From an uncultured Pseudomonadales bacterium (lineage in GTDB: Bacteria; Patescibacteriota; Microgenomatia; UBA1400; RBG-16-45-19), in contig CAYYKL010000004.1 of the NCBI GenBank assembly GCA_964441155.1, positions 5,103-69,102 of the forward strand: DNA of 64,000 nt, read 5' to 3'. Of this stretch, positions 363-17,579 are shown piece after piece; position 1 is the stretch's first letter; each line of letters begins with the position of its first letter. The notes beneath the pieces are model-generated. The model did no database searches. It saw only the letters and a program-made list of their open reading frames with translations, and was not told the DNA's origin. A program made the translations under genes and the position numbers.

Positions 363-1763
363 ATGAAAAATGAATTAAATCAAGAACAATCGATTATAGC
401 TCATATCAATGCCCTAAGGCGGAGAACGCTTAGAACATTTTCAAGCTATGGCCTGCTGAGTCTTGTGCTGCTATCTTTTTTGGGTACCCCTGATAATGCA
501 CAAGGCGGCATGACTCCAATTAATCATGATTTGCATTCAGTTATCTATGATCCAGAGGCAATTCATACAGACCAAAAAGAAAATTTTTCTGCTTCAGGAA
601 ACGTGCATGCTTTTGCATCGAAAGAAGCAGATTCTCTCTTCCAAGTACGGGGAAATACTGGAATTGAAATTACAGAGGAAGACTATAAAGACAATAAACC
701 TCCTCAAGTAGCTAGAGAATCCCTATCTCGAGCACAAGAACAATATTCTAGAATTGCCTCAATATACGCTAGTGAAGTAAGAGTGCTATATCCAACTTCA
801 TTCCAAGAACTGATGGACCGCAGCGGCCAAACCAAAAGTCCTATTAATCCATTTATTAATGTCAGACTTAGGAATGAACGTTCCGAAGATGATGCGAGAA
901 TTTTTACGAAAACTGCAACTCTTCTTCTTGGATCAAATACAACGAGAGTTGTTAGATCGGTTTCAGAAACAGGAACAGCGAGTCATGTTTTTGCATATGT
1001 AGACCCATCAAAAGAAGTGATAGGCTTTGGATTAAATTTCACAAGTTTTAGAGGCGATCTCGGAGCAAAACGGAAAACTGCCATACATGAAGTAATTCAT
1101 TTAATTGATTTATCTGCAGGGAATTACGATTTAGAAACCAGAATTCGCATGGAAACACTCAAAGCGGAGGCGTTTGCACTCTATGATCCATTTTACATAT
1201 TTGACACTAAGTATTGGGGAGACATCGATAGCTACTACGCACAGGATGGCGATGGAAATTTTGTCAATCCATTATATAAATTTGGTTTTGCAGTTATTAA
1301 TTCTTTTGAGCGAAATCCTGATTTAACATTCTTTGATAATTCGGAAATTCAGACAGAATTTATTAATAAAATGCTTGAATGGCAATCGAATGGTTGGAGT
1401 CACCAAGATATATTGCGTATTGGTCGGCTGACAGTTGAGAATCGAATGCTAAATCCAAGATTTCTTTTTCCTGATAGCAACTTGGAAAGTTGGTATACCT
1501 TTTTCTCTTCCTGGATGTTGATGGAGTCTTGGCCAGCATTAGTTGACGAATGCTTATCAGGAAATGGCTCTGCCATCAATCAAGATAAAGAGCTTAAGGA
1601 GTTAATGCGTCAGTATCTAGAGCTTGCTTCAGGGAGAAATATTGATAATATTGACGAATTAATTTACAGCTTGAGATGGGAAGGCGGTTTGTGGGAAACG
1701 GATGATCCGATAAATATTAGGTATCCTGCTCCTCCTTTAAATTTTGAGGCTATGTATCAATAA
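363..1763 (+). CDS. Hypothetical secreted or membrane-anchored protein with an HExxH motif (possible zinc metallopeptidase)
   Basis: 466-aa ORF with an N-terminal hydrophobic segment (LLSLVLLSFLG). A single HEVIH (HExxH) motif lies in ...KTAIHEVIHLIDLS.... I recognise no other family signature. Confidence 0.35.
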   Translation: MKNELNQEQSIIAHINALRRRTLRTFSSYGLLSLVLLSFLGTPDNAQGGMTPINHDLHSVIYDPEAIHTDQKENFSASGNVHAFASKEADSLFQVRGNTGIEITEEDYKDNKPPQVARESLSRAQEQYSRIASIYASEVRVLYPTSFQELMDRSGQTKSPINPFINVRLRNERSEDDARIFTKTATLLLGSNTTRVVRSVSETGTASHVFAYVDPSKEVIGFGLNFTSFRGDLGAKRKTAIHEVIHLIDLSAGNYDLETRIRMETLKAEAFALYDPFYIFDTKYWGDIDSYYAQDGDGNFVNPLYKFGFAVINSFERNPDLTFFDNSEIQTEFINKMLEWQSNGWSHQDILRIGRLTVENRMLNPRFLFPDSNLESWYTFFSSWMLMESWPALVDECLSGNGSAINQDKELKELMRQYLELASGRNIDNIDELIYSLRWEGGLWETDDPINIRYPAPPLNFEAMYQ

Positions 1764-3455: not shown

Positions 3456-5642
3456 ATGCCCTCTTCAACCCTGCTAACCGTTGTCGTTCCAGTGCGCAAC
3501 GAACGCTACACACTCGAAGCCTTCTTTTTGCGCTTACACAAAGCGCTCTCTTACGCCAAGATACCCTATCAAGTTGTTGCGGTTGATGACTCTTCTGAAG
3601 ATGGCTCGAGCCAAAAACTCTCCAGCCTGGCTAAAGATTATCCCATCACAATCTTGCCAAAAAGCGGTCCCTTAGGAAAAGGCTACTCGTTGCATGAAGG
3701 TTTAAAAACGGTCACTACACCGTTTGCTTGCTATATCGATGCAGACAACGCCTACCCGCCAGAAATGATTCCGGAAATGCTGGTCAAGCTGAATACTGCT
3801 GATATTGTGGTCGCCCAGCGCAATTATTCCAAAAAGGGTAGATGGTTAAAAAAATCTTTAGCCAAATTTTTCAGACGAGTATTTGGACAAGCATTGTTTG
3901 GACTCGACTTCGATGTGCAAGCAGGATTGAAAGTATTTCGCACCGATGCCTTCGCGTCACTTGATCTACACCCCTCAACCTGGAGTTTCGATATAGAATT
4001 TCTCTACAAGGCCGTTCATGCCGGATTTGTCGTTGTTGCACACGACATCAACTATGCTCAGCGCTCAAATGGCAAAGGAAAACATAATCTCTTTACTGCT
4101 GGCATTGAATTGGTTTTATTGTCACTTAAACATCGTTTGTCGCCGCTTAAACCAGTGCACGTGCAAACAAGAGGTTTGACGCGTCAAGTGGGGTGGAAAA
4201 AAATGCGCTTCGATACCCACACTGATTTGCATTATTCTCAAGCAGCCATTCAAACGTTGACTATTAAACAAATTGCGCTCTTTGTGATGGCAATTGCGAT
4301 TGTGGCACTTTTATTTGTATTTGATTGGCAAAAATCCTTGGCCGTCACGGTCTCACTAATTACCGCCTTTTACTTTCTTGATTTGCTATTCAATTTATAT
4401 CTAATCCGGGCAGCATTCAAAAAAAATCCGGCGATACAGATTACCCCCAAGCAAATTGAAGCCTATGACAAACCATGGCCTATGTATTCAATCATGTGTC
4501 CACTCTATAAAGAGTGGCAGGTAATCCCACAATTTACTCAAGCAATTCAGGCAATTGATTATCCCAAAGACAAACTCGACGTGATGCTTATTCTTGAAGA
4601 AGACGATACAGAAACTATTGCAAAAGTGAAAAGCATGAGCCTGCCTGCCTATTTTCGAACGATTATCGTGCCCGATGCACAACCAAAGACAAAACCCAAA
4701 GCGTGCAATTACGCACTCAAAAAAGCCAAGGGTGAATATGCGGTTATCTATGACGCCGAAGACGTGCCAGATCCATTGCAACTCAAAAAAAGCATCGTTG
4801 CCTTCAATCAATTACGCAAGCAAAATATTGTGTGTTTACAGGCAAAACTGAATTACTACAATCCAGAACAAAATCTTTTAACTCGTTTTTTTACGGCTGA
4901 ATACAGCTTATGGTTCGATGTCATTTTGCCGGGGATGCATAGCGTCAATGCGCCTATTCCCCTGGGAGGCACTTCAAACCACTTCAAAGTTTCGGATCTA
5001 AAACTTCTTTCTGGCTGGGATCCGTTTAATGTCACTGAAGACTGTGACTTGGGCATGCGCCTCGTTAAATATGGCTATCGCACCATGATCTTAGATAGCA
5101 CCACCTATGAAGAGGCTAATTCGGACGTAGCTAATTGGTTCCGGCAACGTTCACGCTGGATCAAAGGTTATATCCAAACGTATCTCGTGCACATGCGATC
5201 ACCTCAGGAATTTTTAAGTGACTGGCATAATCCTAACTTACTCTTTTTTCAATTAATTGTCGGTGGCAAAGTGTTGTCACTCATAATCAATCCGATCATG
5301 TGGATAACCACGATTGTGTATTTCACTCTAAGATCAACTGCTGGAGCTTTTATAGAATCTCTCTTTATTGGACCAGTTTTCTATCTAGGTTTCACCGCAC
5401 TAGTATTAGGAAACTTCATGTATCTCTACTACTACATGATTGGAAATGCCAAGCGGGAGCAATGGTCACTCATTAAATACTGCTATCTCATCCCGATTTA
5501 TTGGCTGATGATGAGCATTGCAGCCTGGAAGGCATTCTATCAAATCATGGTTAAACCTCACTATTGGGAAAAAACTACTCATGGACTCCATCTAGGATCA
5601 GGGGAGTCGATTACGTTTTCATTATCTAAAAATGCACTATGA
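3456..5642 (+). CDS. Bifunctional glycosyltransferase carrying two GT2 domains; the second is a processive synthase-like domain with a QxxRW motif
   Basis: The N-terminal domain TVVVPVRNE...VVAVDDSSEDGS is GT2. The second domain has ...YAVIYDAEDVPDP..., a TED, and QRSRWIKG (QxxRW), followed by C-terminal TM helices, as in cellulose/chitin/hyaluronan-synthase-like GT2s. 728 aa. Confidence 0.7.
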   Translation: MPSSTLLTVVVPVRNERYTLEAFFLRLHKALSYAKIPYQVVAVDDSSEDGSSQKLSSLAKDYPITILPKSGPLGKGYSLHEGLKTVTTPFACYIDADNAYPPEMIPEMLVKLNTADIVVAQRNYSKKGRWLKKSLAKFFRRVFGQALFGLDFDVQAGLKVFRTDAFASLDLHPSTWSFDIEFLYKAVHAGFVVVAHDINYAQRSNGKGKHNLFTAGIELVLLSLKHRLSPLKPVHVQTRGLTRQVGWKKMRFDTHTDLHYSQAAIQTLTIKQIALFVMAIAIVALLFVFDWQKSLAVTVSLITAFYFLDLLFNLYLIRAAFKKNPAIQITPKQIEAYDKPWPMYSIMCPLYKEWQVIPQFTQAIQAIDYPKDKLDVMLILEEDDTETIAKVKSMSLPAYFRTIIVPDAQPKTKPKACNYALKKAKGEYAVIYDAEDVPDPLQLKKSIVAFNQLRKQNIVCLQAKLNYYNPEQNLLTRFFTAEYSLWFDVILPGMHSVNAPIPLGGTSNHFKVSDLKLLSGWDPFNVTEDCDLGMRLVKYGYRTMILDSTTYEEANSDVANWFRQRSRWIKGYIQTYLVHMRSPQEFLSDWHNPNLLFFQLIVGGKVLSLIINPIMWITTIVYFTLRSTAGAFIESLFIGPVFYLGFTALVLGNFMYLYYYMIGNAKREQWSLIKYCYLIPIYWLMMSIAAWKAFYQIMVKPHYWEKTTHGLHLGSGESITFSLSKNAL

Positions 5643-8116
5643 AACACAACGAAACACTGTATAGTGCAAAACAAAACGGTTTGACTACTGTAAAAACAGT
5701 CAAGTATTTTATTGGACAAGCCATATTCTACGCGGCCAACTACGGGTATGTCGTGTTATTGAGCAACCAATTGGCAGCAACTGATTTTGGCAGACTTAGT
5801 TTGTTCACTGCGTTTTTCATGTTATTGTCGGTGCCCACGAATGCAATTCAATTATTATTAATCACCTATTTAGCCAAGTTTTCTCAAGTAAAATCCCAGT
5901 CGCGCATCGAATCTGTCTTAAGGCTTGCTCGTAAATACAGCGTTGCGATCGGGAGTCTTATTTTGGGTGCCTACCTCATTACCATTCCGGTGATGCAACA
6001 ATATTTTCACATCAACGCCTTTACACCATTCATATTGCTCGTGCCCACCATAATACTGCTATTCACCTCATCGTATTACAAAGGAATTCTTCAGGGTCAG
6101 TTCCGTTTTGATGCCATGGGTGTAGTTATGGCAACGGAGGGTATCGCCAAAATCTTGTTTGCCTTACTAGCTGCTTGGTTTACCCATTCCTATATTGTCT
6201 CTCTCGCCAGCTTAACCTTTTCAATCTTCATTTCTACAATCGTTGCATTTATATTCACCTATTCCAAGAAAAAAGTGGCGACGCCTTCTTTATTGTTAGA
6301 GAAATCACTCAAAACAGAAATGCGCCTGTTTTTGGCCCAAGCAGGATTAGTTTCAGCCGCGTTATTGGTTATGACACAAATCGATGTGATTATGGCGAAT
6401 CATATTTTGGATAGTGCCGGCATTGGAACTTGGGGGCTTTTGTCTGTGGCAGGCAAAAGCATGATTATGGGCGGTGGGATTTTATCGAGCATTTTCTTAC
6501 CCGCACTTGCTGCAAAGGCGGGCACTCGCAAAGTGAGTCCCATCTTCCGCAAAGGTTTTGCGGCAGTAAGCGCGTTTGTGCTGGGTTGCATCGGAGTTAC
6601 TTTTTTGTTTGCCACGCCTTTATCCCAAATCATTTCTGGCGGCAATCAAAGTGTGGCTCAATGGTTATTTTTCTACACCTTGGCCGCTGGCATGATTACG
6701 CTGACCGCGTATATTATTAACAGCCAAATTGTTTTAAAAGAATATTTATTTGCGCTGCCTCCGCTTGTCCTCACCTTGTTGTATGTTTATGTGCTTTCGA
6801 TATTCTCGTGGGATTTAGAGTCTAGTTTATACGCATACTTCAGCTATGCCACAGCACTTCTTACTTCAAGCTTGGTCTTTTTTATGTTGCGCTATGCAAA
6901 ACCACATCTCCTTGATGTTGCTGGCCTGTTTAAACCCTCGTATGCAATTCATGAAGTAAAAGATAATCGGCTGAAAATTCTCGTGCTCAATTGGCGCGAC
7001 ACCAAACACGTTTGGGGTGGGGGAGCCGAAGTCTATGCGCAAGAACTGGGCAAACGCTTGGTGGAAAACGGCGCTCATGTAACCCTTTTTTGTGGGAACG
7101 ATCTTCATAATTTGCGCGAAGAGACCATTGATGGCGTTAATATTATTAGGCGAGGCGGCTTCGTGACCGTTTATTTCTGGGCCATGATCTACTATGTTTT
7201 CCGCTTTAGAGGCAAATTCGATTGCATTCTCGATTGTGAAAATGGAATACCATTCTTCAGCGCACTCTATACCAATACGCCTGTAATCTTATTGATTCAT
7301 CATGTCCACCAAGAAATTTTTAGAGAACATTTATTCCCGCCATTTTCTTGGTTGGCTCAATTTTTAGAAGCCCACCTTATGCCCTACGTATATCGCAACT
7401 CAAAAATTGTGACGATTTCAGACTCAACTAAAAAAGATATTCGCCGACTTGGTTTGAAAGTTCACGACGTGCCTATCGTGCACAATGGCATTTCCCTCGA
7501 TGAATTCGTGCCTGGTGAAAAATCGCCAGAACCCTTGGTTGTGTATGTTGGCAGATTGAAAGCCTACAAGCGCCTTCCCGATCTAATTGCCTGTGCTCGA
7601 TCTCTCCAGCAACGCCTGCCCAAAGTTACGTTTGTGATTGCGGGTGACGGCGAAGAATCAAATCGACTAAAAAAGCTGGTTCGCCTCTATAATCTCGAGT
7701 CGGTGATTTCGTTTACCGGCTACATTACGCCACAAGAAAAAATTGCGTTGTATCAAAAGGCTTGGGCCGTCATGAACCCTTCGTCCATGGAAGGCTGGAG
7801 CATAACCACCATTGAAGCCAATGCCTGCGGTACACCAGTAGTGGCTGCCAATGTCCCCGGTTTGCGCGATTCGGTGAAGCACAGACAAACTGGCTTACTT
7901 ATTACCATGGGTGATATCGAAGGCTATTCTCAAGCTTTATTCTCGCTATTAACTAACTCAAGCTTACGGTCAACGATGTCTGCAAACGCAAGGGAATGGT
8001 CAGAAGAATTCACCTGGGAAAAGAGTGCGCATCAATTTTTGGAAATAATCTCGGACAACAGTCACAAACTTCACCGCGCAATTGATTCGCTCACCTTAAG
8101 CAAGTTCTCTCGCTAA
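5639..8116 (+). CDS. Fusion protein: N-terminal Wzx-like (MOP family) polysaccharide flippase and C-terminal GT4 glycosyltransferase
   Basis: About 430 aa of multi-TM sequence carries the ...DFGRLSLFTAFFMLL... polysaccharide-biosynthesis-protein signature. It is followed by ILVLNWRDTKHVWGGGAEVY...EGWSITTIEANACGTPVVAANVPGLRDSV, the GT4 EX7E region. The start overlaps the upstream gene by 4 nt (ATGA). Confidence 0.65.
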   Translation: MKHNETLYSAKQNGLTTVKTVKYFIGQAIFYAANYGYVVLLSNQLAATDFGRLSLFTAFFMLLSVPTNAIQLLLITYLAKFSQVKSQSRIESVLRLARKYSVAIGSLILGAYLITIPVMQQYFHINAFTPFILLVPTIILLFTSSYYKGILQGQFRFDAMGVVMATEGIAKILFALLAAWFTHSYIVSLASLTFSIFISTIVAFIFTYSKKKVATPSLLLEKSLKTEMRLFLAQAGLVSAALLVMTQIDVIMANHILDSAGIGTWGLLSVAGKSMIMGGGILSSIFLPALAAKAGTRKVSPIFRKGFAAVSAFVLGCIGVTFLFATPLSQIISGGNQSVAQWLFFYTLAAGMITLTAYIINSQIVLKEYLFALPPLVLTLLYVYVLSIFSWDLESSLYAYFSYATALLTSSLVFFMLRYAKPHLLDVAGLFKPSYAIHEVKDNRLKILVLNWRDTKHVWGGGAEVYAQELGKRLVENGAHVTLFCGNDLHNLREETIDGVNIIRRGGFVTVYFWAMIYYVFRFRGKFDCILDCENGIPFFSALYTNTPVILLIHHVHQEIFREHLFPPFSWLAQFLEAHLMPYVYRNSKIVTISDSTKKDIRRLGLKVHDVPIVHNGISLDEFVPGEKSPEPLVVYVGRLKAYKRLPDLIACARSLQQRLPKVTFVIAGDGEESNRLKKLVRLYNLESVISFTGYITPQEKIALYQKAWAVMNPSSMEGWSITTIEANACGTPVVAANVPGLRDSVKHRQTGLLITMGDIEGYSQALFSLLTNSSLRSTMSANAREWSEEFTWEKSAHQFLEIISDNSHKLHRAIDSLTLSKFSR

Positions 8117-8132
8117 AAAAACTGGCTCGATT

Positions 8133-9107
8133 TTAGAGGTTGTCGTACGAAAAGTTTTTGGTGGTTGGCGACATTTGCCAAAGATGCAATTTCTTGTTGT
8201 TTGGGACCATCATGCATTTTGTTAGTGTTACACTCAATAGGAGCGCATAGATGAGTGCATAAGCGGGATGAGAAACCACTGCTTTAATTGCTGAAAGTAC
8301 CAAGAGAATCTTGGGAATGTGATACCAATTCACCTGATTTTTAGCTGGGGACAATTTCTTTTTTGATTTTTTGGCGAGGAAAAATCTAGAGCTTTGACGC
8401 ATATGGTCTTCTAATGTTTGTGGAGAGGTATACCAAACCCTAGCGATTGGCGCGAAAGCAAAATCAAAGCCAAAATGCTTGGCTTTCATATACGAATAGG
8501 CGTCTTCACCGGCAATTCCCGGCCAACGAAGTTTACGATACAATTTTCTTGAAAAAGCTCGGGCTCTACCGTGACACATGTACACAGTGTCTCCGTGGTT
8601 TATTTTTTGAAACAATTCGTTTTTCCATTCATGATGCCAGTCGAGTACTTTACCAACTAATGAACTATTTTGTGACAAGGGGATTATTTTGGCACCAACC
8701 AATCCAATGTTTTCTTTCGAAATAAGTGGCAAGCAAAGTCCTTGCAAAAATGTTTTGTTCACGGGCAAAATATCTGCGTTAAGCAAAACTACAATATCAG
8801 TTCTTGCAAGAGAAAAGACTTGATTTTGCCGTTGAGAAGCCCCGATTCTCCTTCTGCCCACAATTACCTTGATGCGCGAATCATCCACGCTTTTTGCTGC
8901 GCGCACTGTCTCGTCATCACTTGCATCAGAAATGACAATGATTTTTTCAAGCGCAAAGTCTTTTAATTGCTGCTTCAGGATACATTCGAGCAAAACAGCA
9001 ATATGAGCAGATTCATTGTACGCGGGAATTCCCACCGTGATTGAAAGCTTCTTCTGAAGGGATGTTGTTTTTTTCATGCGCAGTGAATAGGTGGCTAAGA
9101 ATAGCAA
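8133..9107 (-). CDS. Family-2 glycosyltransferase
   Basis: ITVGIPAYNESAHIAVLLECILKQ...IIVISDASDDETV. It is a paralog of the ORFs at 10677 and 11627. Confidence 0.75.
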   Translation of the reverse strand: MLFLATYSLRMKKTTSLQKKLSITVGIPAYNESAHIAVLLECILKQQLKDFALEKIIVISDASDDETVRAAKSVDDSRIKVIVGRRRIGASQRQNQVFSLARTDIVVLLNADILPVNKTFLQGLCLPLISKENIGLVGAKIIPLSQNSSLVGKVLDWHHEWKNELFQKINHGDTVYMCHGRARAFSRKLYRKLRWPGIAGEDAYSYMKAKHFGFDFAFAPIARVWYTSPQTLEDHMRQSSRFFLAKKSKKKLSPAKNQVNWYHIPKILLVLSAIKAVVSHPAYALIYALLLSVTLTKCMMVPNNKKLHLWQMSPTTKNFSYDNL

Positions 9108-9372: not shown

Positions 9373-10680
9373 ATGCAAGCATCAAGAAATTATCGTATTG
9401 GAGTGGTGGGAACTGGCTTTATTGCCAAGGGGTTAATCCACGCGCTCAACGACCATCCACAGCTTCAGGTAAGCAGCGTGTTAACGCGCCGGCCTATTCA
9501 AGGGGTCAATAACGTTCCCGTACCTCACTCAATCATAACCCAAGACATTGACAAGGTAATTAAGTCATCTGATTTAGTCGTGGAATGCACCGGCGATACG
9601 ATTCATGGCACCGATGTCATCGAAGCGGTTATCCGCGAAGGTTTGCCTGTAGTTACCATGAATCCTGAACTACACATTGTCTCGGGTACCAAGCTCTCTC
9701 AAAAGGGAACCGTTATTGAAGCCGAGGGTGATCAGCCCGGCACACTAGCAGCACTCGATATTGAACTTAAAGATATGGGTTTTGAACCCATTGTCTATGG
9801 CAACATCAAACGATTTTTAAATCTCAATCCAACTCGTGAAGACATGGAATATTGGTCGAAACGGCAAGGGATAAGCCTCAACATGGTGACTTCATTTACG
9901 GACGGTACAAAAGTGCAAGTTGAACAAGTTTTAGTGGCTAATAATTTAGGTGCGACCATCGCGTGCCGTGGCTTATCCGCCATTAATTGCATCAATCATG
10001 AAGACGGTGCGCTGCGCCTGGCTGAAATTGCTGAGAGCTACCATCAACCCATTAGTGATTATGTGGTTAGTCCCACGGCGCCTGCTGGAGTATTTATCGT
10101 TGCCAGGCATTCAGGCAAACAACAACCCTACCTGCAATACTTAAAGCTCGGAGATGGTCCTCATTACGTTATTATTCGCCCGTATCACCTGTGTCACTTG
10201 GAAATCCCCAAAACAATCATGAAAGTGTTAACGGGAAGTCAACGTTACACTTTTAATAATGGTGGTAAGCCAGTGGCGCAAGTGGTGGCAGTTGCTAAAA
10301 AACCCTTGGCTGCAGGCGATAAATTTGCTAAAGCTGTTGGTAGTTTTGAATTGCGCGGAGAAGCAGTGCTTATTGACGCTCATTCTCAGGCTGTTCCGAT
10401 AAGCCTTATGGATAACGCTGTGCTTAAAAAAGCCATAGAGCCCGGAGAAATCATAACCTTCGCTGATGTGGAATTGCCCCCATCACGAGCATTAACTCTC
10501 TGGCACGAAACGCTCGCAGATTTGGGCCATAAGCAAATCTACAAAAAACCAGTTGAGCGTAAACGCCCGCCAAAACCGAAAAGAACCACTATTATCCCTG
10601 AACCATATTTTAAGCCATCGTTGATGTATCGCGTCAGTCAATGGTTTTTTAAAGTACCTTCCGGAAGAATTGCCTCATGA
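9373..10680 (+). CDS. NAD(P)-binding oxidoreductase with a C-terminal SAF domain (COG4091-like 'predicted homoserine dehydrogenase with SAF domain')
   Basis: N-terminal Rossmann motif RIGVVGTGFIAKG. The C-terminal region KPLAAGDKFAKAVGSFELRGEAVLID resembles a SAF domain. It sits inside the glycosyltransferase operon. Confidence 0.45.
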   Translation: MQASRNYRIGVVGTGFIAKGLIHALNDHPQLQVSSVLTRRPIQGVNNVPVPHSIITQDIDKVIKSSDLVVECTGDTIHGTDVIEAVIREGLPVVTMNPELHIVSGTKLSQKGTVIEAEGDQPGTLAALDIELKDMGFEPIVYGNIKRFLNLNPTREDMEYWSKRQGISLNMVTSFTDGTKVQVEQVLVANNLGATIACRGLSAINCINHEDGALRLAEIAESYHQPISDYVVSPTAPAGVFIVARHSGKQQPYLQYLKLGDGPHYVIIRPYHLCHLEIPKTIMKVLTGSQRYTFNNGGKPVAQVVAVAKKPLAAGDKFAKAVGSFELRGEAVLIDAHSQAVPISLMDNAVLKKAIEPGEIITFADVELPPSRALTLWHETLADLGHKQIYKKPVERKRPPKPKRTTIIPEPYFKPSLMYRVSQWFFKVPSGRIAS

Positions 10681-11600
10681 AAAACAAGCTGCCTACCGTA
10701 ACCATCGGCATTCCTGCCTACAATGAAGAAGCCAATATTGGAAATCTTTTATCAGACATAAAAAAGCAGGAAACCCAGACTTTTAGGCTTAAAAAAATTG
10801 TGGTTGCTTGTGATTCACCTAGTGATCATACGTTTGAAATTGTTAAACGCCATGCCCGGCGCAATAAAAAAATAGAGATCATCAATGGCCACAAACGACT
10901 TGGTCAAACAACCAGGCTTGGTCAATTATTTTCTATGACTGAAACAGATTATCTCGTTTGCTTTGATGCCGACGTGGCTTTGGTAGACCCCAAAGTCATT
11001 GAGAAATTAATTCAACCGCTTGAGGACCAAAAAAGCGTCGGATTAGTTGGAGCAAATTTGCAACCAGCGAAAGCCGAAAATCTTTTTGAACACGCGATGA
11101 ATACGATGTTTGAAATCTGGTATAAAGTTCGTCTTCAGCACCAAAGTGGCAATAATATTTTCAGTCATTTAGGTGCCGCTTTCGCTATTAGAAGTGAATT
11201 GGCTCATGCCATTCATTTCCCTAGCTTTATCGTGGCTAATCAACACTTTTTGTATATCAGTGTTTTGCGCAAAGGGTGGCGCTTTGCCTTTGCTCGAGAG
11301 GCGCGAGTATTGTTCCGATCACCGTCGTGTTTTGCTGATTATCACGTCCAGGCAACTCGACCATTTACGGAAAAGGAGCAAATATTTGCGTATTTCGGTA
11401 ATGGTGTGAAAAGTTTGTTTGCAATACCAATGTCATATAAAACAAAAGCAATTTTGCTTACCTTTTTACAAAGCCCCTTGCTAACGAGCCTGGGATTGAC
11501 GTTATTCGCCTGGATTCGCGTGTATACCCACTTAACCATTGCCAAAAAACAAACAGTTTTGTGGGACACACCATTTTCCACCAAACGAGCAGTGGCCTAA
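10677..11600 (+). CDS. Family-2 glycosyltransferase
   Basis: TVTIGIPAYNEEANIGNLLSDIKKQ...VVACDSPSDHT. It shares the C-terminal ...WDT..STKR motif with the next ORF, so the two look like tandem paralogs. Confidence 0.75.
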   Translation: MKNKLPTVTIGIPAYNEEANIGNLLSDIKKQETQTFRLKKIVVACDSPSDHTFEIVKRHARRNKKIEIINGHKRLGQTTRLGQLFSMTETDYLVCFDADVALVDPKVIEKLIQPLEDQKSVGLVGANLQPAKAENLFEHAMNTMFEIWYKVRLQHQSGNNIFSHLGAAFAIRSELAHAIHFPSFIVANQHFLYISVLRKGWRFAFAREARVLFRSPSCFADYHVQATRPFTEKEQIFAYFGNGVKSLFAIPMSYKTKAILLTFLQSPLLTSLGLTLFAWIRVYTHLTIAKKQTVLWDTPFSTKRAVA

Positions 11601-11626: not shown

Positions 11627-12541
11627 ATGAAGACTAAAAAAATAACTATTGGAATTCCCACCTATTACGGCGGTCCATCACTGGTTGAAACGGTTAGAAG
11701 TATCCGTGCAAGCAGTAACTATTCGGATGCCTTAGTTGTGGTTTGTGTCGATGGTGTGCCGCTAAAAAAACCAATAGAAAAAGCATTGCAGGCACTTAAT
11801 GTCGATATCGTATTCAGCGAAGTTCGCGGTGGCCAAGTTGCCCGGATTAAACAAATTATTGGCATGTGTAAAACTCAATTTCTCGTACTTACCCAAGACG
11901 ACATCATCCTTGATGCTCAATCGCTTGAAAGAATTGTGGCGGAGTTTGATCAAAATCCAAAAACGACAATGGTTGCGGCATGTGAATTACCCACCAAACC
12001 AATAATGCTATTTGAAAAAATATTGGCTTCTGGATACGAAAGTGCCCTATGGATTGGCGAACATTGGAACAACGGGGACAATTATTTACTACCCAGTGGG
12101 AGATGCTTAGCTTTTCGCACGGCTCACGCGCAAAAATTTTCTTTACCCGAAGAAATTATTAATTCAGATACCTATCTGTATTTTGAAAATAAGCGCCTTA
12201 AAGGGTTGTGTCGGTATGTGAAGAGTGCAGTTGTGTATAATCCGCTGCCGCAAAAACTAAAAGAGCACATCAATCAAAGCCGTAAGTTTGCAATTTCTCA
12301 AGCAGAAAACCAACGCTATTTCAAACGAGATTTGAACCGTGAATATGCCATCCCCACATCTCTAAAAGTGATGGGCTTGATCCGATCACTTAGCAAACAA
12401 CCGCTATACACGGTGGCTTATCTGACAATTAATGTTTACACCCGAATTGCAGGTAGAAATTTATTTAAAAACGCCACCCGTTTTTGGGATACAGACAGCT
12501 CTACCAAAAGGCTTAAATCGAGCATGACCGCAGGAAAATAG
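11627..12541 (+). CDS. Family-2 glycosyltransferase-like protein (divergent)
   Basis: KITIGIPTYYGGPSLVETVRSIRAS...VVVCVDGVP, with the C-terminal FWDTDSSTKR. It is a paralog of 10677..11600. Confidence 0.55.
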   Translation: MKTKKITIGIPTYYGGPSLVETVRSIRASSNYSDALVVVCVDGVPLKKPIEKALQALNVDIVFSEVRGGQVARIKQIIGMCKTQFLVLTQDDIILDAQSLERIVAEFDQNPKTTMVAACELPTKPIMLFEKILASGYESALWIGEHWNNGDNYLLPSGRCLAFRTAHAQKFSLPEEIINSDTYLYFENKRLKGLCRYVKSAVVYNPLPQKLKEHINQSRKFAISQAENQRYFKRDLNREYAIPTSLKVMGLIRSLSKQPLYTVAYLTINVYTRIAGRNLFKNATRFWDTDSSTKRLKSSMTAGK

Positions 12542-12571: not shown

Positions 12572-14086
12572 ATGAAGACATTACTAGCCGCACTATCGCT
12601 TTGCTTCTTTTCAGCCCTCTTGCTAGGACTTACGGTGAGAGGCAATTGGGGCAATCCGCGACCAAGTGAGATATCTACCCATCTCGTTCAACAAGGTGAG
12701 GTTTTCGAGTCAACCCTTTCGCGTGGGCGCTATGCACAAACCATGGCATTAGTAGAAGATAAAGTGGCAAATCTAACAAACGGAAAAGAATTGGTGGCGT
12801 TACCAGACGCAGGGTATGTCTCTGATAGAGTATATCCTTTATTTGCTCCGGGCCTTGCATTTTATATGGCACCTGCCTACATGATTGGTGCTTATTTTAA
12901 CGCCAATCAAATAGCAGTGTTTTCCTTTATGTCGTTGATAAGCCTTTGCTCAGTCATGATGCTGTTTGGTATACAAAAAGCAATCCGCATTCCTAGTTGG
13001 GCTGCCTGGTTTTCCAGTTTTGCCTTTTTATTCGGCACGAGCGCATTTCCCTATGCAGTAACCATTGCCCAACACAACGCAACGGTACTTTGCCTTTTGC
13101 TTATGTTGCTTGCAGGTATAAAGGGTGCTAGCAAGCCCTGGCTTTATATTTTCGGCTGGCTCGCCTATGGACTGGCAATATTTATGGATTATCCTAATCT
13201 ACTTCTATTGCTTCCCGCAGCTATTTACATGGGTTTAAGTAGCGCAACGATAATAAAAAACAAGCGAGATACAACCATTCGCTTGAAGTTGGCAGCCCTT
13301 TACTGTGTGGTCTTTTTTATGGTGGTTAATGGGTTGCATGGCTGGTATAACCAGGCTCACTTTGGCTCATTTAAGAATATTGGAACTTCGGTCTATACCC
13401 GAGTCCAAAATATGCAAGAGTTGCGGGATATTCGTGCCAACCCATTAGCACTTGAGCCAATTGCAGATACAAGACGTGTATCATCATCGCTCTTTCATCC
13501 GAGCAATTTGCCCAGAGGCATGGTTGTTTTGCTTTTCAGTTTAGATCGTGGCATCATTTTTTACGCGCCAATCGTACTTCTAGGTTTAGTGGGAATCTAT
13601 GGGCTGAGCAAATCAAAAGAGTTTTCTCGTTTGAGTGTGGCTCTTGCTATTACTATGGCCACTAATCTTGTCCTGTATGGCTCATTTGGTGATCCTTGGG
13701 GTGGTTGGGAATATGGACCGAGGTATCTTATACCAAGCATGGCAATACTAGCTGTTGGCCTCGGTAAAAGTCTCGCTGACATTAAAAGCCTTTGGTATCG
13801 ATTGTTAGCATTGCTTATCTTTGTCTATTCTTCCACCATAAACACCTTTGCCGTTCTCACCACCAATCAATCAATACCGAGCGTTGAATCAGGTGTGATG
13901 GAATTTGCATTTGTGCATAAAATTTCGCTGTTAAAAAATGGCATGATTTCAAGTTTTGCTTATCGAGAATGGTTACGTAATTACATGACTGAATACCAAT
14001 TTTTTATCGTGATCATGACTATAATCGTGATCGCTGCTTATTTAAGCCTTCTTATTGCGCCATTATTTGATCGGGAAAAAAGATAG
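12572..14086 (+). CDS. Integral-membrane GT-C-type glycosyltransferase (PMT/ArnT-like, PMT_2 family)
   Basis: 504 aa with about 11 predicted TM segments. The first extracytoplasmic loop ...EVFESTLSRGRYAQTMALVED... resembles the DE..RYA..A motif of the ArnT/PMT family. Confidence 0.45.
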   Translation: MKTLLAALSLCFFSALLLGLTVRGNWGNPRPSEISTHLVQQGEVFESTLSRGRYAQTMALVEDKVANLTNGKELVALPDAGYVSDRVYPLFAPGLAFYMAPAYMIGAYFNANQIAVFSFMSLISLCSVMMLFGIQKAIRIPSWAAWFSSFAFLFGTSAFPYAVTIAQHNATVLCLLLMLLAGIKGASKPWLYIFGWLAYGLAIFMDYPNLLLLLPAAIYMGLSSATIIKNKRDTTIRLKLAALYCVVFFMVVNGLHGWYNQAHFGSFKNIGTSVYTRVQNMQELRDIRANPLALEPIADTRRVSSSLFHPSNLPRGMVVLLFSLDRGIIFYAPIVLLGLVGIYGLSKSKEFSRLSVALAITMATNLVLYGSFGDPWGGWEYGPRYLIPSMAILAVGLGKSLADIKSLWYRLLALLIFVYSSTINTFAVLTTNQSIPSVESGVMEFAFVHKISLLKNGMISSFAYREWLRNYMTEYQFFIVIMTIIVIAAYLSLLIAPLFDREKR

Positions 14087-14087
14087 T

Positions 14088-15719
14088 ATGAACTTCAAAT
14101 TTAGTGGCTCAAGTTTTCAATTAACCCTGCCTCATGCACCTTGGCAAAGATTTGCAAGTGTTTTTAACCGTCAGAGCACTAACATCGTGCTGGCATTAAG
14201 CGTCTTATTTTCCTGGATCAGTTGGTTTTACTATTTCTCAAATGGAAACAACTTGGCTTATAACGATGCGATGTCTCACCTTGATATTGCCCGTAGAGTT
14301 TATGACAATCTTACTCCAGGTGCAGCTCAGCTGGGCAGCGTTTGGTTGCCACTTTCCCACGTGTTAATGCTACCTACCATTTGGATTGATTTTTTCTGGC
14401 GATCAGGATTCTCTGCTGCAATTGTATCCATGATTGCTTACAGCATCACAGTCGTAGCCATTTTCAAAACCAGTAAATCTTTGGGGCTTTCAACCAAAGC
14501 TTCATTAATTGCTGCAGCGGTGACGGGATTAAATACCAATTTTTTATACTTACAAACAACTGCCTTAACCGAGCCACTCTTTATGGCATGCGCGAGTATG
14601 TCTCTGTATTACTTGGCAGTATGGGTAAAAAGTAATCAATTATACAGCTTAATTGGTGCCGCGTTTTGGATTATGTTGTCAAGCTTAACCCGATATGATG
14701 GCTGGGCGTTACTAGGATTATCGGGCATTTGCGTAGTTGTTATTTCGTATCTTCGAACTAAAAAATATAAAGTATTAGAAGGAAACGCAATTCTTTTTGG
14801 AACCCTAGCTGGATTGGGCATTGTATTATGGTTGGGCTGGAATTACATGATTTTTGGTAATCCACTTTATTTTGCCACCGGAGAATTTTCGGCAAAAGCT
14901 CAGCAAGATATTTTAGAAGCAGCTAATGATTTACCCACCAAACATAACTTATGGATATCATTTATAACGTATGTCTATGCCATGATCAGCAATATTGGCT
15001 TAATCAGTATAGTGATTGCCTGTTTTGGCTGGATACTCTTTCTAAAACAAAAATTGGCCACTTACAAAGTGTTGGCTCTGGCATTTGCAGCGCCGCTTAT
15101 TTTCAACATACTGGCTCTTTATTTAGGTCATTCTGTCATTCATTTACCTGAATTGTTCGGTGCCAGCTGGTTTAATGTCCGCTACGGCCTCATTGTTTTG
15201 CCATGGGTTGCTATCGGAGTCGCCTATGTCTTTGAACAGAAAAGTGTCTTGGCTAAATCACTCGTTCCTTATCTGTTATTTTTGCAAATTGGAATGTTCT
15301 TTAATAACCGTTATATCGTGACCGTTGATGATGGTCTTTGGGGTTCGAGTCAAAAAAATGTAAAACAAGTAGGTCTATTCATTAATGAAAAAATTGGTCC
15401 TACCAACCAACCGATATTAGTTTCTGTTGCCTCGCACGATGCCATTCTTTTTCAAAGTGGACTTCCGATGAAACGATTTATCCACGAGGGAACAGGAGAT
15501 TTCTGGGACGAGGCACTCATTGATCCCGATCAATTTGCACCATATGTTCTCATGCGCACCCACGATAATCTCGATTCTGTTGCCAGAGAAATGGATAAAG
15601 TTCCTGGCTTTTTTGAGCGCTACGAACTACTTTATGACGATGAATATGCCGATGTCTATCAACGCAAACTTCCAGATTCAATCACTATGAGCGAAGCGGG
15701 GGATAATGAAGCCAATTAA
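14088..15719 (+). CDS. Integral-membrane GT-C-type glycosyltransferase (PMT/ArnT-like) with a C-terminal soluble domain
   Basis: Multi-TM N-terminal region with ...YNDAMSHLDIARRVYDN... in its first loop, then about 150 aa of soluble C-terminus. The ORF track starts it at 14055, overlapping the upstream gene; ATG 14088 immediately after the upstream stop is the more likely start. Confidence 0.45.
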   Translation: MNFKFSGSSFQLTLPHAPWQRFASVFNRQSTNIVLALSVLFSWISWFYYFSNGNNLAYNDAMSHLDIARRVYDNLTPGAAQLGSVWLPLSHVLMLPTIWIDFFWRSGFSAAIVSMIAYSITVVAIFKTSKSLGLSTKASLIAAAVTGLNTNFLYLQTTALTEPLFMACASMSLYYLAVWVKSNQLYSLIGAAFWIMLSSLTRYDGWALLGLSGICVVVISYLRTKKYKVLEGNAILFGTLAGLGIVLWLGWNYMIFGNPLYFATGEFSAKAQQDILEAANDLPTKHNLWISFITYVYAMISNIGLISIVIACFGWILFLKQKLATYKVLALAFAAPLIFNILALYLGHSVIHLPELFGASWFNVRYGLIVLPWVAIGVAYVFEQKSVLAKSLVPYLLFLQIGMFFNNRYIVTVDDGLWGSSQKNVKQVGLFINEKIGPTNQPILVSVASHDAILFQSGLPMKRFIHEGTGDFWDEALIDPDQFAPYVLMRTHDNLDSVAREMDKVPGFFERYELLYDDEYADVYQRKLPDSITMSEAGDNEAN

Positions 15720-17001
15720 ACGATTTCTATCAGTGGCTATCGCCAGTTTTGTGGTGCTTTTTCCACATAAGGTGCATGCTGAGGCTCAACCTCGCTTGTG
15801 GAATATTCAATCAATCGACACCATGAAGATATCCCGAGATCGTTCAAAACAACAATTTAGCGATCAGCAAATAATTAATGAGTTAGAACTCGTAAAAAAC
15901 GCAGGTGCAAACTACGTCGGCATTGCCACTCCTTATGATGAAGAATTCTATCCAGTGCTCAAGCGATGGAGTGATTTAGCCCATCAAATGGGATTGTCAG
16001 TTTGGTTTAGAGGGAATTTTTCTGCTTGGGAAGGCTGGTTTGGTTATGAAAAAAACATGACTCGACAAGAGCATCTTACAAAAACCAAAGCTTTTATCCT
16101 GGCACATCCCAATCTATTCCAAGATGGAGATAGTTTTACTGGATGTCCTGAATGTGAAAATGGCGGTCCAGGCGATCCACGCACGACCCGAGACCATGTA
16201 GGACATAGACAGTTTTTAATTGACCAGTATGAAACAGCCAATGCTGCCTTTAAACAAATCAATAAACAGGTCGAAACAAATTGGTTTTCAATGAATGGAG
16301 ATATTGCTCGATACGTTATGGATAAAGCGACCGTGGATAAACTTGGTGGGCTGATAACTATCGATCACTATGTCGCCACACCAGAACAATTTGAAGCTGA
16401 TTTACTAAAGTTGCACACTGAGCTTGGTGCAAAAGTGCTTCTTGGAGAAATTGGCGTGCCTATTCCGGACATTCATGGCTCTCTTACCAAAGATGAGCAG
16501 GCGACACTTTTACCCAAATATCTGGATGTCATGTTGAAACATCAGAATTTTGTCATTGGCTTTAATTACTGGACACATCATGATGCTTCAACCGCAATTG
16601 CCAATAGTCAATTGCAGCCATATCCTGCCTATTACCGCTTGCAAGACTATTGGCAACCAGGGACCGTAAAAGGGCATATCGCTAATAATCTCATGGATCC
16701 TCTCTCAAACGCACAGATTAGTCATGCTTACGGCAACGCTCTGACGGATGAGAACGGTGATTATGAATTACTCCTTCCGGTAGGCGAATACGACTTAACG
16801 GTAAGTCGTGATGGTTATATCAGCCAAACGCACCGCGTAAAAATATTTGAATATTCCACCATGGATTTACCAATTTTTCTCGAACCACAAGAGCCAGGTT
16901 TTTGGTATAAAGCTAGAGAACGAATGCAACAATTGCTTGAGAATATGCGTCCAATTTCTCAACTTCCCCAACGGTTTCGACAGTTATTGTCAACGCGGTA
17001 A
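15706..17001 (+). CDS. Secreted TIM-barrel glycoside-hydrolase-like protein (clan GH-A-like) with a C-terminal carboxypeptidase-regulatory-like domain
   Basis: Signal peptide MKPIKRFLSVAIASFVVLFPHKVHA. ...VLLGEIGVP... resembles the GH-A nucleophile motif. C-terminal DENGDYELLLPVGEYDLTVSRDGYISQTHRVKI is a CarboxypepD_reg-like motif. Confidence 0.45.
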   Translation: MKPIKRFLSVAIASFVVLFPHKVHAEAQPRLWNIQSIDTMKISRDRSKQQFSDQQIINELELVKNAGANYVGIATPYDEEFYPVLKRWSDLAHQMGLSVWFRGNFSAWEGWFGYEKNMTRQEHLTKTKAFILAHPNLFQDGDSFTGCPECENGGPGDPRTTRDHVGHRQFLIDQYETANAAFKQINKQVETNWFSMNGDIARYVMDKATVDKLGGLITIDHYVATPEQFEADLLKLHTELGAKVLLGEIGVPIPDIHGSLTKDEQATLLPKYLDVMLKHQNFVIGFNYWTHHDASTAIANSQLQPYPAYYRLQDYWQPGTVKGHIANNLMDPLSNAQISHAYGNALTDENGDYELLLPVGEYDLTVSRDGYISQTHRVKIFEYSTMDLPIFLEPQEPGFWYKARERMQQLLENMRPISQLPQRFRQLLSTR

Positions 17002-17054
17002 TACTAGAAGCTTATTTCAGTTATACTTAGTTGAATGCTTTTTCGGTTAAGAAA

Positions 17055-17579
17055 CTAAATCGCAATAGCTCGGACGATTAAGCGCTTAGAATCTAGAAAG
17101 CCCGAGCAGGTATAGAGCGTTAGCGTGGGCTCCATGGTTTGTTGAATCCAAGAGATATCACTGGGATTTACTTCGGTAATGTGTTCAATTCGATAAGTAT
17201 GTTCGTTCTGGTTTTGATCGGTGACACTTATCCATTCGCCTGTTTTCAGTTCATCGAGTGACCCAAAAATGTGGGGATAGTTGTGGCCATAAATCACCAC
17301 ATTGCCGCCTGTCCCCAAACCAGCTGATTCACTTAAATAATTGCCCATGGTGTTGTCGACATACCAGGTGCCATCTGAAAGCTCGGTTCTCACCAAATTG
17401 ATATGTTTGCCTGAAGGCAATTTAATTTTCACCGGCAACAAGCGTTGTTCGAAGACCGGGCTTGAAATTCTAGGCGGCTGCTCTGTCCCTATAGTAATTA
17501 GACCTGAAGCAATAAACATCAAACCTATAACAAATAGGATTCGTAATGTATTTCGATAAATACGGGAACGCTTTGCCAT
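17055..17579 (-). CDS. Sortase (class E-like transpeptidase)
   Basis: N-terminal TM anchor, the conserved IYGHN histidine block, and the LTLYTC active-site cysteine (TLxTC). It lies immediately downstream of a LAXTG substrate gene. Confidence 0.75.
   Translation of the reverse strand: MAKRSRIYRNTLRILFVIGLMFIASGLITIGTEQPPRISSPVFEQRLLPVKIKLPSGKHINLVRTELSDGTWYVDNTMGNYLSESAGLGTGGNVVIYGHNYPHIFGSLDELKTGEWISVTDQNQNEHTYRIEHITEVNPSDISWIQQTMEPTLTLYTCSGFLDSKRLIVRAIAI

Follow-up and report, generated by a model that had tools for sequence, protein, structure and literature searches.

A reading frame that joins a Wzx-like flippase domain to a GT4 glycosyltransferase raises two questions: is it a real protein, and in what kind of pathway would such a protein work? 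The frame lies in a 64,000-nucleotide stretch of DNA (here, the window), the features of which are listed in Table 1. The fusion reading frame is intact, and its DNA is identical in two further independent assemblies. Full-length colinear homologs were found at 79, 79, 72, 41, and 40% identity, along with dozens more at about 35%, and the MOP-GT4 junction recurs in at least 70 species-level genomes. An artifact in which a frameshift or a missed stop codon at the domain junction joined separate flippase and GT4 genes, a caveat attached to the earlier note, is thereby rejected with near certainty. Both domains are under strong purifying selection (pN of 0.17 to 0.23 for MOP and 0.10 to 0.13 for GT4, versus a pS of about 0.75 to 0.8); because the synonymous sites are saturated, the two values are given in place of a dN/dS ratio. 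The start codon overlaps the stop codon of the upstream double-GT2 gene (ATGA), as had been noted before, and this arrangement, which recurs in three relatives (L001, L004, and L043), indicates on sequence grounds that the two genes are translationally coupled.

Table 1. Features of the window discussed in the text (TM, transmembrane helix)
Feature	Position	Strand	Remarks
Partner protein, GT2a-2TM-GT2b-4TM	3456..5642	+	728 aa; other half of the four-module unit
GT2a, Dpm1/GtrB/ArnC-like (polyprenyl-phosphate glycosyltransferase-like)	3456..4160	+	aa 1 to ~235
GT2b, membrane-embedded processive-synthase-like (cellulose-synthase-like) GT2	4476..5345	+	Assigned from motifs and BcsA match
GT2b motif DAED	4749..4769	+	aa 433-436
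GT2b motif TED	5034..5048	+	aa 527-529
GT2b motif QRSRW	5145..5159	+	aa 564-568
ATGA start/stop overlap of the fusion frame with the upstream double-GT2 gene	5639..5642	+	
MOP(Wzx-like)-GT4 fusion frame	5639..8116	+	825 aa, intact
MOP/PST-type 12-TM transporter domain	5639..6925	+	aa 1-429
Cytoplasmic linker, TM12 to first GT4 beta-strand	6926..6973	+	aa 430-445, ~15 residues; no other frame open
GT4 domain (GT-B fold, retaining-type)	6974..8062	+	aa 446-808; Pfam, Foldseek, invariant residues
GT4 clade motif NWRDTKH	6989..7009	+	
GT4 motif GGGAEVY	7016..7036	+	
EX7E catalytic/donor-binding motif	7790..7816	+	E718-GWSITTI-E726
GT2 glycosyltransferase, one C-terminal TM	10677..11600	+	Position of relatives' GT2 gene(s) between megaprotein and GT-C genes
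Second GT2 glycosyltransferase	11627..12541	+	Conserved downstream block
~10-TM protein, probably GT-C-like	12572..14086	+	504 aa; no Pfam match of its own; conserved downstream partner
PMT_2-family GT-C glycosyltransferase	14055..15719	+	Pfam; conserved downstream partner
Stand-alone paralog of the fusion's MOP domain	40923..42167	-	414 aa, 12 TM, no Pfam match
GT2-Wzy_C protein	46510..48552		38 kb from the fusion; only Wzy_C domain in the window reading frames scanned
Canonical Wzx (PF13440)	51619..52860		Within a separate GT4-rich cluster

In the predicted structure, the N-terminal domain has 12 TM helices in two six-helix bundles that form a V, which is the MOP superfamily fold, and the full 12-TM fold is kept with high model confidence. 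At the sequence level, the domain scores 24.5 to 26.2 bits against the Pfam PST/Wzx families (PF01943 and PF13440), under the cutoff of 28.2, and hhalign pairs it with the window's own PF13440 Wzx protein at 54% probability (E value, 1.3e-4). When the TM domains of 13 relatives were compared with Pfam, PF01943 matched four of the 13 (best E value, 5.5e-10), PF13440 two (1.8e-14), and MatE two; an NCBIfam scan of 13 TM domains left the query without a match and gave a single SpoVB match, in one relative. A profile of the TM domain alone, run against PDB sequences, returned spurious orexin-receptor and other TM matches and no MOP protein. Since sequence-level detection fails, a comparison of folds was needed, and it rules out the GtrA- or YfhO-like identity that had been named as one possible alternative for the TM region. 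Across the MOP domain family, positions E167, K171, D249, H255, and G272 vary little or not at all; among the charged residues within TM helices, K171 and D249 are invariant and E167 is nearly so. Topology was called with a home-made hydropathy scan, in which K/R-rich segments alternate as expected (N terminus, loops 2-3, 4-5, 6-7, and 8-9, and C terminus). Because the resulting topology is N-in/C-in with 12 TM helices, the GT4 domain is placed on the cytoplasmic side.

The GT4 domain is above the Pfam thresholds for PF00534 (Glycos_transf_1, 136.5 bits) and PF13439 (Glyco_transf_4, 60.4 bits). It has a two-Rossmann GT-B fold, with Foldseek target-normalized TM-scores of about 0.8 to MshA, BshA, SPS, PimA, and PglA. 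Across 37 sequences, neither the two glutamates of the EX7E motif (E718 and E726) nor the phosphate-binding residues R639 and K644 vary, and the domain looks catalytically intact. The earlier description of a Wzx-like MOP/PST domain and a complete GT4 enzyme in one polypeptide is confirmed. Run against PDB sequences, a profile of the full-length fusion alignment gave GT4 matches and no others, because all alignment columns were used.

The coupled upstream gene encodes two further glycosyltransferase modules. The closest solved relatives of GT2a are all polyprenyl-phosphate glycosyltransferases (DPMS 5mlz, 1.3e-15; GtrB 5ekp, 2e-14; ArnC 9hwj, 7e-11; PDB sequences), and its NCBIfam matches (AglJ, Dol-P-hexose transferase, PgfS, and ArnC) are all far under the equivalog cutoffs. 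GT2b carries the D, DxD, TED, and QxxRW motifs, with two TM helices before and about four after the catalytic domain, as in BcsA, PgaC, NodC, and hyaluronan synthase. Its best solved relative is BcsA (6e-12, PDB sequences). None of these synthases is linked to a MOP transporter and a GT4 domain as GT2b is, by fusion or coupling, and every equivalog score of GT2b is far under threshold (for PgaC, 78.8 bits versus a threshold of 422).

Far from standing alone, the fusion is the standard state of a large CPR family, relatives of which are encoded in at least 554 species-level genomes, mostly labeled Patescibacteria/CPR. We surveyed the architecture in 80 species-level loci. The commonest arrangement is one frame of about 1,550 to 1,600 aa, GT2a-GT2b-MOP-GT4 (33/80 loci), followed by GT2b-MOP-GT4 in one frame without GT2a in 21; in another 15 loci, a GT2b-containing gene lies immediately upstream, with junctions mostly of -4 to +5 nt, and an adjacent GT2b is missing in only three. 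Thus, the fusion recurs among relatives, and what does not stand is MOP-GT4 as the whole unit: because GT2b shares a frame with MOP-GT4 in 54 of the 80 loci, and GT2a does so as well in 33, the two genes of the window are a split four-module protein. In some relatives, GT2b-GT4 is kept but MOP is cut down to its last six TM helices or replaced by a linker of about 60 to 70 aa, from which it follows that transport in cis is not obligatory.

Conservation extends downstream of the fusion. In relatives, one or two GT2 genes are followed by the 10-TM GT-C-like gene and then by the PMT_2 GT-C gene. Of the 57 loci whose downstream sequence runs to 7 kb or more, 46 have a homolog of the 10-TM protein and 42 have one of the PMT_2 protein; two GT-C-type genes thus lie downstream of the fusion in about 75 to 80% of loci. 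The 10-TM protein is probably GT-C-like, as judged from its sequence: 4 of 15 homologs match PMT_2, and E46, R53, and P78-D79 are invariant. No PDB sequence matched its profile. Farther away, the window contains two stand-alone Wzx-like genes (at 40923 and 51619), as was previously claimed.

We propose that the fusion frame is the transporter and GT4 half of a conserved Patescibacteria/CPR four-module machine that makes, flips, and uses a lipid-linked sugar for an envelope glycan, a reading to which we give about even odds (probability, roughly 0.5). The analysis itself shows the domain identities, folds, topology, conservation, range of architectures, and gene neighborhood; that MOP transports, that its substrate is lipid linked, which sugars take part, and in what order the steps run are inferred. 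The tethered glycosyltransferases of the cytoplasm would assemble a sugar or short glycan on a lipid carrier on the inner side of the membrane; MOP, separated from GT4 by some 15 residues, would translocate it; and the two downstream GT-C enzymes, which point to polyprenyl-phosphate-sugar donors, would take the flipped molecule as a donor outside the cell. GT2b may provide the acceptor polymer. The parts assigned to GT4 and GT2b in this scheme are guesses. One point against the scheme is that synthases of the kind GT2b resembles move their product across the membrane themselves, which would make a separate flippase unnecessary for the GT2b product. A more elaborate version, which we consider doubtful, is that GT2a-GT2b-MOP-GT4 and the two GT-C enzymes constitute a self-contained hybrid pathway typical of CPR, in which one polypeptide would both make and extrude a backbone polymer through its synthase-type GT2 and also make polyprenyl-phosphate-sugars, flip them with its own MOP domain, and pass them to GT-C enzymes for decoration of the polymer outside.

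The proposed machine has to be weighed against other uses of the same parts. PelF is a GT4 enzyme, and PelG is a 12-TM MOP/PST protein. The fusion might be a covalent version of this pair, in which GT4, with or without GT2b, polymerizes a polysaccharide in the cytoplasm and MOP serves as an inner membrane conduit for a polymer that is not lipid linked. In both systems, a cytoplasmic glycosyltransferase works with an inner membrane transport part, although in Pel (PelD/E/F/G) the glycosyltransferase PelF and the transport subunit PelG are separate proteins (PMC8892547, PMC7112168). The short tether that holds GT4 at the cytoplasmic face of MOP and the constant presence of a processive-synthase-like GT2b with QRSRW fit this idea, as does the failure to find a priming phosphoglycosyltransferase (PF00953 or PF02397; WecA/WbaP type) among the scanned window reading frames (all but a few small ones) or a Wzy polymerase gene adjacent to the fusion in the window. 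However, Pfam PelG (PF16933) matched neither the query nor the 13 relatives, the called genes of loci L001 to L004 include none of the PelD/PelE-like or c-di-GMP-binding kind, and for PelG itself, transport of the polymer is only a proposal. Pel has neither the GT2 synthase nor the GT-C partners present here, and the conserved GtrB/DPMS-like GT2a and the two GT-C enzymes would be left unexplained; we regard a Pel-like conduit as less likely but as a real rival. The lack of a priming enzyme among the scanned frames counts against the reading of the earlier note, that of a classical Wzx domain which, as part of a Wzx/Wzy pathway, flips a repeat unit carried on Und-PP, with the fused GT4 adding the last sugar. 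Apart from the Wzx-like fold and family signal, this reading can draw on one relative (L004) whose locus has a Wzy_C gene some 2.5 kb upstream and on the GT2-Wzy_C protein of the window. The latter is distant, and just 1 of 80 loci has a homolog of it nearby; the canonical Wzx of the window already sits in a cluster of its own; and a classical Und-PP-oligosaccharide substrate is unsupported because no priming enzyme was found among the scanned frames. Nor is there support for the idea that the final sugar transfer is coupled to flipping in the Wzx/Wzy sense: the conserved partners are two GT-C enzymes and a GT2 of the synthase-like kind, and some relatives have half a MOP domain or none. We judge this reading improbable.

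A membrane lipid such as diacylglycerol could be glycosylated by GT2b, GT4, or both, with MOP flipping the finished glycolipid outward; the staphylococcal YpfP/LtaA pair would be a functional parallel. GT4 is weakly similar to the monoglucosyl-diacylglycerol synthase Mgs (2.4e-13), to the lipoteichoic acid anchor glycosyltransferases IagA/BgsA (2.7e-9), and to PimA, and GT2b has a weak match to Glyco_transf_21 (ceramide glucosyltransferase family) and a D,D,D,QxxRW motif set common to lipid glycosyltransferases. Yet these similarities are far under the family thresholds and equal to those seen with many unrelated GT4 and GT2 enzymes, the donors to which the GT-C partners point are of another kind, and we know of no MOP-family protein that acts as a glycolipid flippase, all of which makes a glycolipid product very unlikely. 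Nor do we see much chance that MOP has lost transport and mainly anchors GT4 beside GT2b. The relatives with a reduced or replaced MOP domain would suit a scaffold, as would its faster evolution (about 18 to 26% identity to distant relatives, versus about 45% for GT4), but such divergence is normal for Wzx proteins. Purifying selection, the conserved intramembrane charges, and the complete 12-TM fold argue for a working transporter, as does the abundance of the clade as stand-alone proteins (1,834 representatives at an E value of 1e-30 or less, many of 410 to 470 aa).

Known systems share parts of the proposed machine. Characterized Wzx/PST flippases (e.g., WzxE, PDB 9G95/9G97; PMC11706664) have about 12% identity to the MOP domain, which is under the Pfam threshold; they are stand-alone proteins, whereas the fusion bears a C-terminal GT4, and they serve the Und-PP-oligosaccharide pathway, for which neither a priming enzyme nor a Wzy was found alongside the fusion among the window reading frames scanned. 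A precedent in the literature is the set of GtrB/CsbB-type systems in which a GT-A enzyme (C55-P-sugar), a flippase (GtrA type or the Wzx-type GacK), and a GT-C enzyme act together (PMC8035078). Here, too, a conserved cluster combines a Wzx-type transporter with a GT2a of the GtrB/DPMS/ArnC-like kind and with one or two GT-C enzymes, and by analogy the logic may be the same: a polyprenyl-phosphate-sugar is made inside, flipped, and transferred outside. Unlike in those systems, GT-A and flippase are covalently linked here (most relatives) or translationally coupled, and the synthase-like GT2b and GT4 are extra catalytic modules absent from them.

Our literature searches, including those for Patescibacteria glycosyltransferases and flippases, found no description of a flippase-glycosyltransferase or four-module architecture, and the conserved Patescibacteria/CPR envelope-glycan cluster (the megaprotein, one or two GT2 genes, and two GT-C genes) is apparently uncharacterized so far. 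Patescibacteria/CPR rely on host-cell attachment. Stable flippase-glycosyltransferase complexes are hard to capture; a natural covalent MOP-GT4 fusion, present in hundreds of species and mostly within a four-module protein, is ready for cryo-electron microscopy and reconstitution and bears on how Wzx-type flippases get their lipid-linked substrate from the last cytoplasmic glycosyltransferase. The range of architectures (stand-alone, half-MOP, split, and fused) is a natural experiment on which modules need physical coupling. If the hybrid pathway were real, envelope glycans would be assembled in a way that differs from the Wzx/Wzy, ABC-transporter, and synthase pathways, and the fusion would offer structural biology a natural covalent complex of glycosyltransferase and flippase in which to examine how a flippase is handed its substrate.

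Domain additions to MOP flippases are not confined to this family. The MviN protein of Mycobacterium tuberculosis carries a pseudokinase domain. VanZ is fused to or neighbors MviN/MATE-clan flippases (PMC12419801). As here, MOP flippases accept added domains in these cases, but the additions are not glycosyltransferases and form no four-module assembly. The MOP clade of the fusion is also joined to GT2, GT4-GT2, GT2-GT4, and kinase domains in other proteins; its fusion to other cytoplasmic sugar enzymes suggests a general design in which an enzyme is tethered to its exporter.

The fusion of a Wzx-like transporter and a GT4 glycosyltransferase reported in the earlier note is the C-terminal half of a four-module protein, GT2a-GT2b-MOP-GT4. 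Its partner, the upstream gene, encodes two distinct GT2 modules. The nearest solved relatives of GT2a (aa 1 to ~235) are dolichol-phosphate mannose synthase (1.3e-15), GtrB (2e-14), and ArnC (7e-11), all polyprenyl-phosphate glycosyltransferases, and NCBIfam agrees. GT2b (aa ~341 to 630) is preceded by two TM helices and followed by about four, carries the motifs DAED, TED, and QRSRW, and has cellulose synthase BcsA as its nearest solved relative (6e-12). In 80 surveyed loci, which match the fusion best by tblastn among at least 554 and are not a random sample, the ORFs were taken as stop-to-stop frames, so that lengths are upper bounds. All four modules share one stop-free frame of ~1,550 to 1,600 codons in 33 of the 80 loci, and GT2b-MOP-GT4 forms one frame in 21. 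A further 15 loci are split as in the window, with a GT2b-containing gene directly upstream; MOP-GT4 without adjacent GT2b (3/80), MOP-GT4 or part-MOP-GT4 ORFs ending at a contig end (7/80), and a stand-alone GT4 (L079) make up the others. The split-form junction is mostly -4 to +5 nt (the 15 surveyed loci and the previously fetched relatives' loci L001, L002, and L004), and the same ATGA is found in L001, L004, and L043. From these junctions and the one-frame relatives, it follows that the two overlapping genes of the window are a split four-module protein.

Features of the window
Position	Strand	Length (aa)	Feature
363..1763	+	466	ORF without Pfam match or predicted TM helix
3456..5642	+	728	Double GT2 (GT2a-2TM-GT2b-4TM)
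5639..8116	+	825	MOP-GT4 fusion
8133..9107	-		GT2
9373..10680			Oxidoreductase
12572..14086	+	504	~10-TM protein; no Pfam match, no PDB sequence match
14055..15719			PMT_2-family GT-C
15706..19496			Predicted surface/secreted proteins
24473..28699			Predicted surface/secreted proteins
31152..32648	+		Alg9-like GT22 (GT-C), mannosyltransferase family
36291..38578			Predicted surface/secreted proteins
40923..42167	-	414	Full-length paralogue of fusion TM domain; 12 TM, no Pfam match
46510..48552	-	680	N-terminal GT2 + multi-TM Wzy_C (O-antigen ligase/polymerase-like)
51619..52860			Canonical Wzx-type gene (PF13440, 243 bits)

When the 102 homologues of the first search were scanned with custom HMMs for the four modules, a range of architectures emerged: MOP-GT4 (~800 aa), GT2b-MOP-GT4 (~1,340 aa), GT2a-GT2b-halfMOP-GT4 (~1,370 to 1,400 aa), GT2a-GT2b-GT4 without a MOP domain (~1,185 aa), and, more distantly, MOP-GT2a-GT4 (~1,080 aa). 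The half-MOP proteins (P0064, P0066, P0067, P0070, P0075, P0076, P0081-P0083, P0085, and P0086) retain only the C-terminal six TM helices, which might dimerise or partner a stand-alone protein; in the MOP-less ones (P0065, P0068, P0069, P0072-P0074, P0077, P0078, and P0084), a linker of ~60 to 70 aa joins GT2a-GT2b to GT4. With each GTDB species represented by one genome, a relative was found encoded in at least 554 genomes, and the informative record titles among the matches listed are those of Patescibacteria/CPR (Woese-, Gottesman-, Davies-, Levy-, Curtiss-, Ames-, Doudna-, Falkow-, and Moranbacteria, Parcubacteria, and Saccharibacteria). Among the surveyed loci, many contigs with the CPR-type cluster bear titles such as “uncultured Gammaproteobacteria,” “Pseudomonadales,” or “Bdellovibrionales”; because the nearest relatives include named Patescibacteria, these MAG titles seem doubtful and look like misassignments.

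The single polypeptide and the translational overlap described in the earlier note were both borne out. The fusion ORF starts with ATG, has no internal stops in the ORF listing and translation, and comprises 12 TM helices and a full GT4 domain; its start codon (5639-5641) overlaps the TGA (5640-5642) of the upstream gene, a double GT2 by Pfam. The stop or frameshift that the note had asked about at the domain junction is absent: the fusion frame is the sole open frame at 6880..7000, and the 2,478-nt gene with 1 kb upstream recurs with zero mismatches in two independent run-level assemblies (SRR30362386 and SRR13214015). Contigs of several sources encode an identical protein, and co-linear full-length homologues exist at 79, 79, 72, 41, and 40% identity, with dozens more at ~35%. 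The zero-mismatch DNA and these homologues rule out an assembly artefact. Relative to the two nearest relatives, non-synonymous divergence (0.17 to 0.23 in the TM domain and 0.10 to 0.13 in GT4) lies far below that at the saturated synonymous sites (~0.75 to 0.8), and therefore both domains are under purifying selection.

The topology is based on simple hydropathy and charge analysis and on an AF2 model. Twelve hydrophobic helices lie within the first 430 residues, 11 of them found by hydropathy scan; TM1 (~aa 23 to 43) is weak in the scan and is a helix in the AlphaFold model (full length, pLDDT 84.9, pTM 0.71). TM12 ends at aa 429, and a linker of ~15 residues leads to the first GT4 strand at aa 446. 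Because the alternation of K/R-rich loops places both ends of the TM domain in the cytoplasm, the GT4 domain, whose membrane face the note had left to be predicted, is cytoplasmic, on the side where nucleotide sugars are located. Pfam finds the full GT4 domain at aa 461 to 802 (PF00534, 136.5 bits; PF13439, 60.4 bits). The EX7E motif noted previously is present as E718-GWSITTI-E726, and both glutamates, as well as R639 and K644, are invariant across 37 homologues. By Foldseek, the domain is a generic retaining GT-B (TM-score of ~0.8 to MshA, BshA, sucrose-phosphate synthase, PimA, and PglA), which indicates no particular donor or acceptor.

For the TM domain, the sequence evidence by itself is weak: its Polysacc_synt match (24.5 bits) is under the 28.2 cut-off, NCBIfam gave no match, and a profile search of PDB sequences returned only spurious GPCR matches. 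Among the TM domains of 13 relatives, four match PF01943 (best, 5.5e-10), two PF13440 (1.8e-14), and two MatE, all MOP-clan families, and the family consensus LGRxLxxEDFG at the end of TM1 aligns with LARLLSPQDFG of the window's own Wzx. Thus, the domain belongs to the MOP transporter superfamily and most resembles its PST/Wzx branch, as the note had proposed; a GtrA- or YfhO-like identity is rejected. Both further stand-alone Wzx-like genes that it listed are confirmed, one by PF13440 and the other by hhalign to the fusion TM domain (99.8%, E 1.4e-27). The latter lies next to two GT4 genes as well as to methyltransferase and kinase-like genes.

The MOP clade of the fusion and this paralogue is missed by present Pfam models. 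When an HMM of the TM domain was searched exhaustively, 1,834 representatives matched at E≤1e-30 and 12,254 at E≤1e-3. Among the best 150 matches are stand-alone MOP proteins (410 to 470 aa), MOP-GT2 (~730 aa), MOP-GT4 (~800 to 850 aa), MOP-GT4-GT2 (1,119 aa), MOP-GT2-GT4 (1,105 aa), MOP joined to kinase-like and GrpB domains (955 aa), and megaproteins (1,400 to 1,600 aa), a range which shows that the clade joins other domains promiscuously. The GT2 domain of the MOP-GT2-GT4 protein P0087 is, like GT2a, nearest to GtrB (4e-13). P0149 (955 aa) combines a MOP domain of the same clade with APH-like phosphotransferase and GrpB domains, and hence the exporter is also tethered to non-glycosyltransferase enzymes. 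L001, the locus of a 79%-identical relative, additionally encodes a 767-aa protein (13649..15952 of that locus, +) with a same-clade MOP domain (E 1e-104) and a C-terminal region of ~340 aa without a Pfam match, an arrangement shared by P0181; it lies between GT2 and oxidoreductase genes, a site at which the window has no gene.

Neighbourhoods were counted in the 57 of the best 80 loci with at least 7 kb of downstream sequence. Homologues of the ~10-TM protein occur in 46 of these (median E, ~9e-65) and of the PMT_2 protein in 42 (median E, ~1.5e-83), in a conserved same-strand order of megaprotein, one or two GT2 genes, 10-TM protein, and PMT_2. The window keeps this order, with the minus-strand GT2 and the oxidoreductase lying additionally between the fusion and the block. 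Judging from its homologues, 4 of 15 of which match PMT_2 (best, 2.5e-8), the 10-TM protein is probably a second GT-C of an unrecognised subfamily; in its family, E46, R53, and P78-D79, all near the first loop, are invariant, as are H168, D206, and D374-P375.

Polyprenyl-phosphate-linked sugars, the donors of GT-C enzymes at the external face of the membrane, are synthesised on its inner side by GtrB/DPMS-type GT-A enzymes and require flipping. The flippase is usually of the GtrA type; for the streptococcal group A carbohydrate, the Wzx-type GacK has been proposed (PMC8035078). The cluster would hold all three functions, GT-A, flippase, and GT-C, with a covalent link or translational coupling between the first two, and the co-occurrence of the three favours a lipid-linked-sugar model. 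The analysis established the domain identities and folds, the topology, the selection, the architectures, and the synteny; as to mechanism, we infer, with a probability of about 0.5, that the tethered cytoplasmic glycosyltransferases would make a lipid-linked sugar or short glycan, which the MOP domain would move across the membrane and the GT-C enzymes would use up outside. A possible role of GT2b is to supply an acceptor polymer; GT4 may either lengthen the lipid-linked unit or prime that polymer.

The main rival is a Pel-like export of a polymer that is not lipid linked, with glycosyltransferase and inner-membrane transport activities that would be joined in one chain here, whereas PelF and PelG are separate subunits in Pel (PMC8892547, PMC7112168). 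We regard it as unlikely, given no PelG-family match for the fusion or 13 relatives and no PelD/E partners among the called genes of L001 to L004, and it leaves GT2a and the GT-C genes without explanation. The classical Wzx/Wzy role, in which the earlier note had coupled the last glycosyl addition to translocation, is still less probable: a WecA/WbaP-type priming enzyme is absent from the window ORFs scanned, and their sole Wzy_C domain lies 38 kb from the fusion and has a homologue near a MOP-GT4 gene in 1 of 80 loci. Least probable, and about equally so, are glycolipid flipping by the MOP domain and a pure scaffold role for it; the half-MOP and MOP-less relatives speak for a scaffold, and purifying selection, invariant intramembrane charges, and abundant stand-alone members speak against it.

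Each module is of a known kind (MOP/PST transporter, GT4, GtrB-like GT2, synthase-like GT2, and GT-C). The novelty lies in the architecture, in which a MOP transporter is covalently tethered to glycosyltransferases, mostly as a four-module megaprotein, in a conserved CPR cluster. MOP flippases fused to other domains, such as VanZ (PMC12419801), are already known; our literature search found no paper on the MOP-glycosyltransferase megaprotein architecture, and public annotation consists of automatic composite names only, e.g., [quoted passage not shown] Such a fusion is unsurprising in principle; it is widespread, well defined, and attractive for experiment, and the system is relevant to substrate delivery to flippases and to the surface chemistry of CPR bacteria.

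The first ORF in the table has no homologue in the 80 related loci. The GT2-Wzy_C protein is a second fusion of a glycosyltransferase with a membrane enzyme in the window. The Alg9-like protein (121.5 bits), encoded here in a bacterial genome, is flanked by pyruvate-phosphate-dikinase-like and glycogen-phosphorylase-like genes. Around the glycan genes, the predicted surface set includes a CarboxypepD_reg-domain protein, a sortase, a 947-aa LamG-domain protein, a CAP-domain protein, a WxL-interacting-domain protein, and a dockerin-containing protein, and the region appears to be dedicated to the cell surface.
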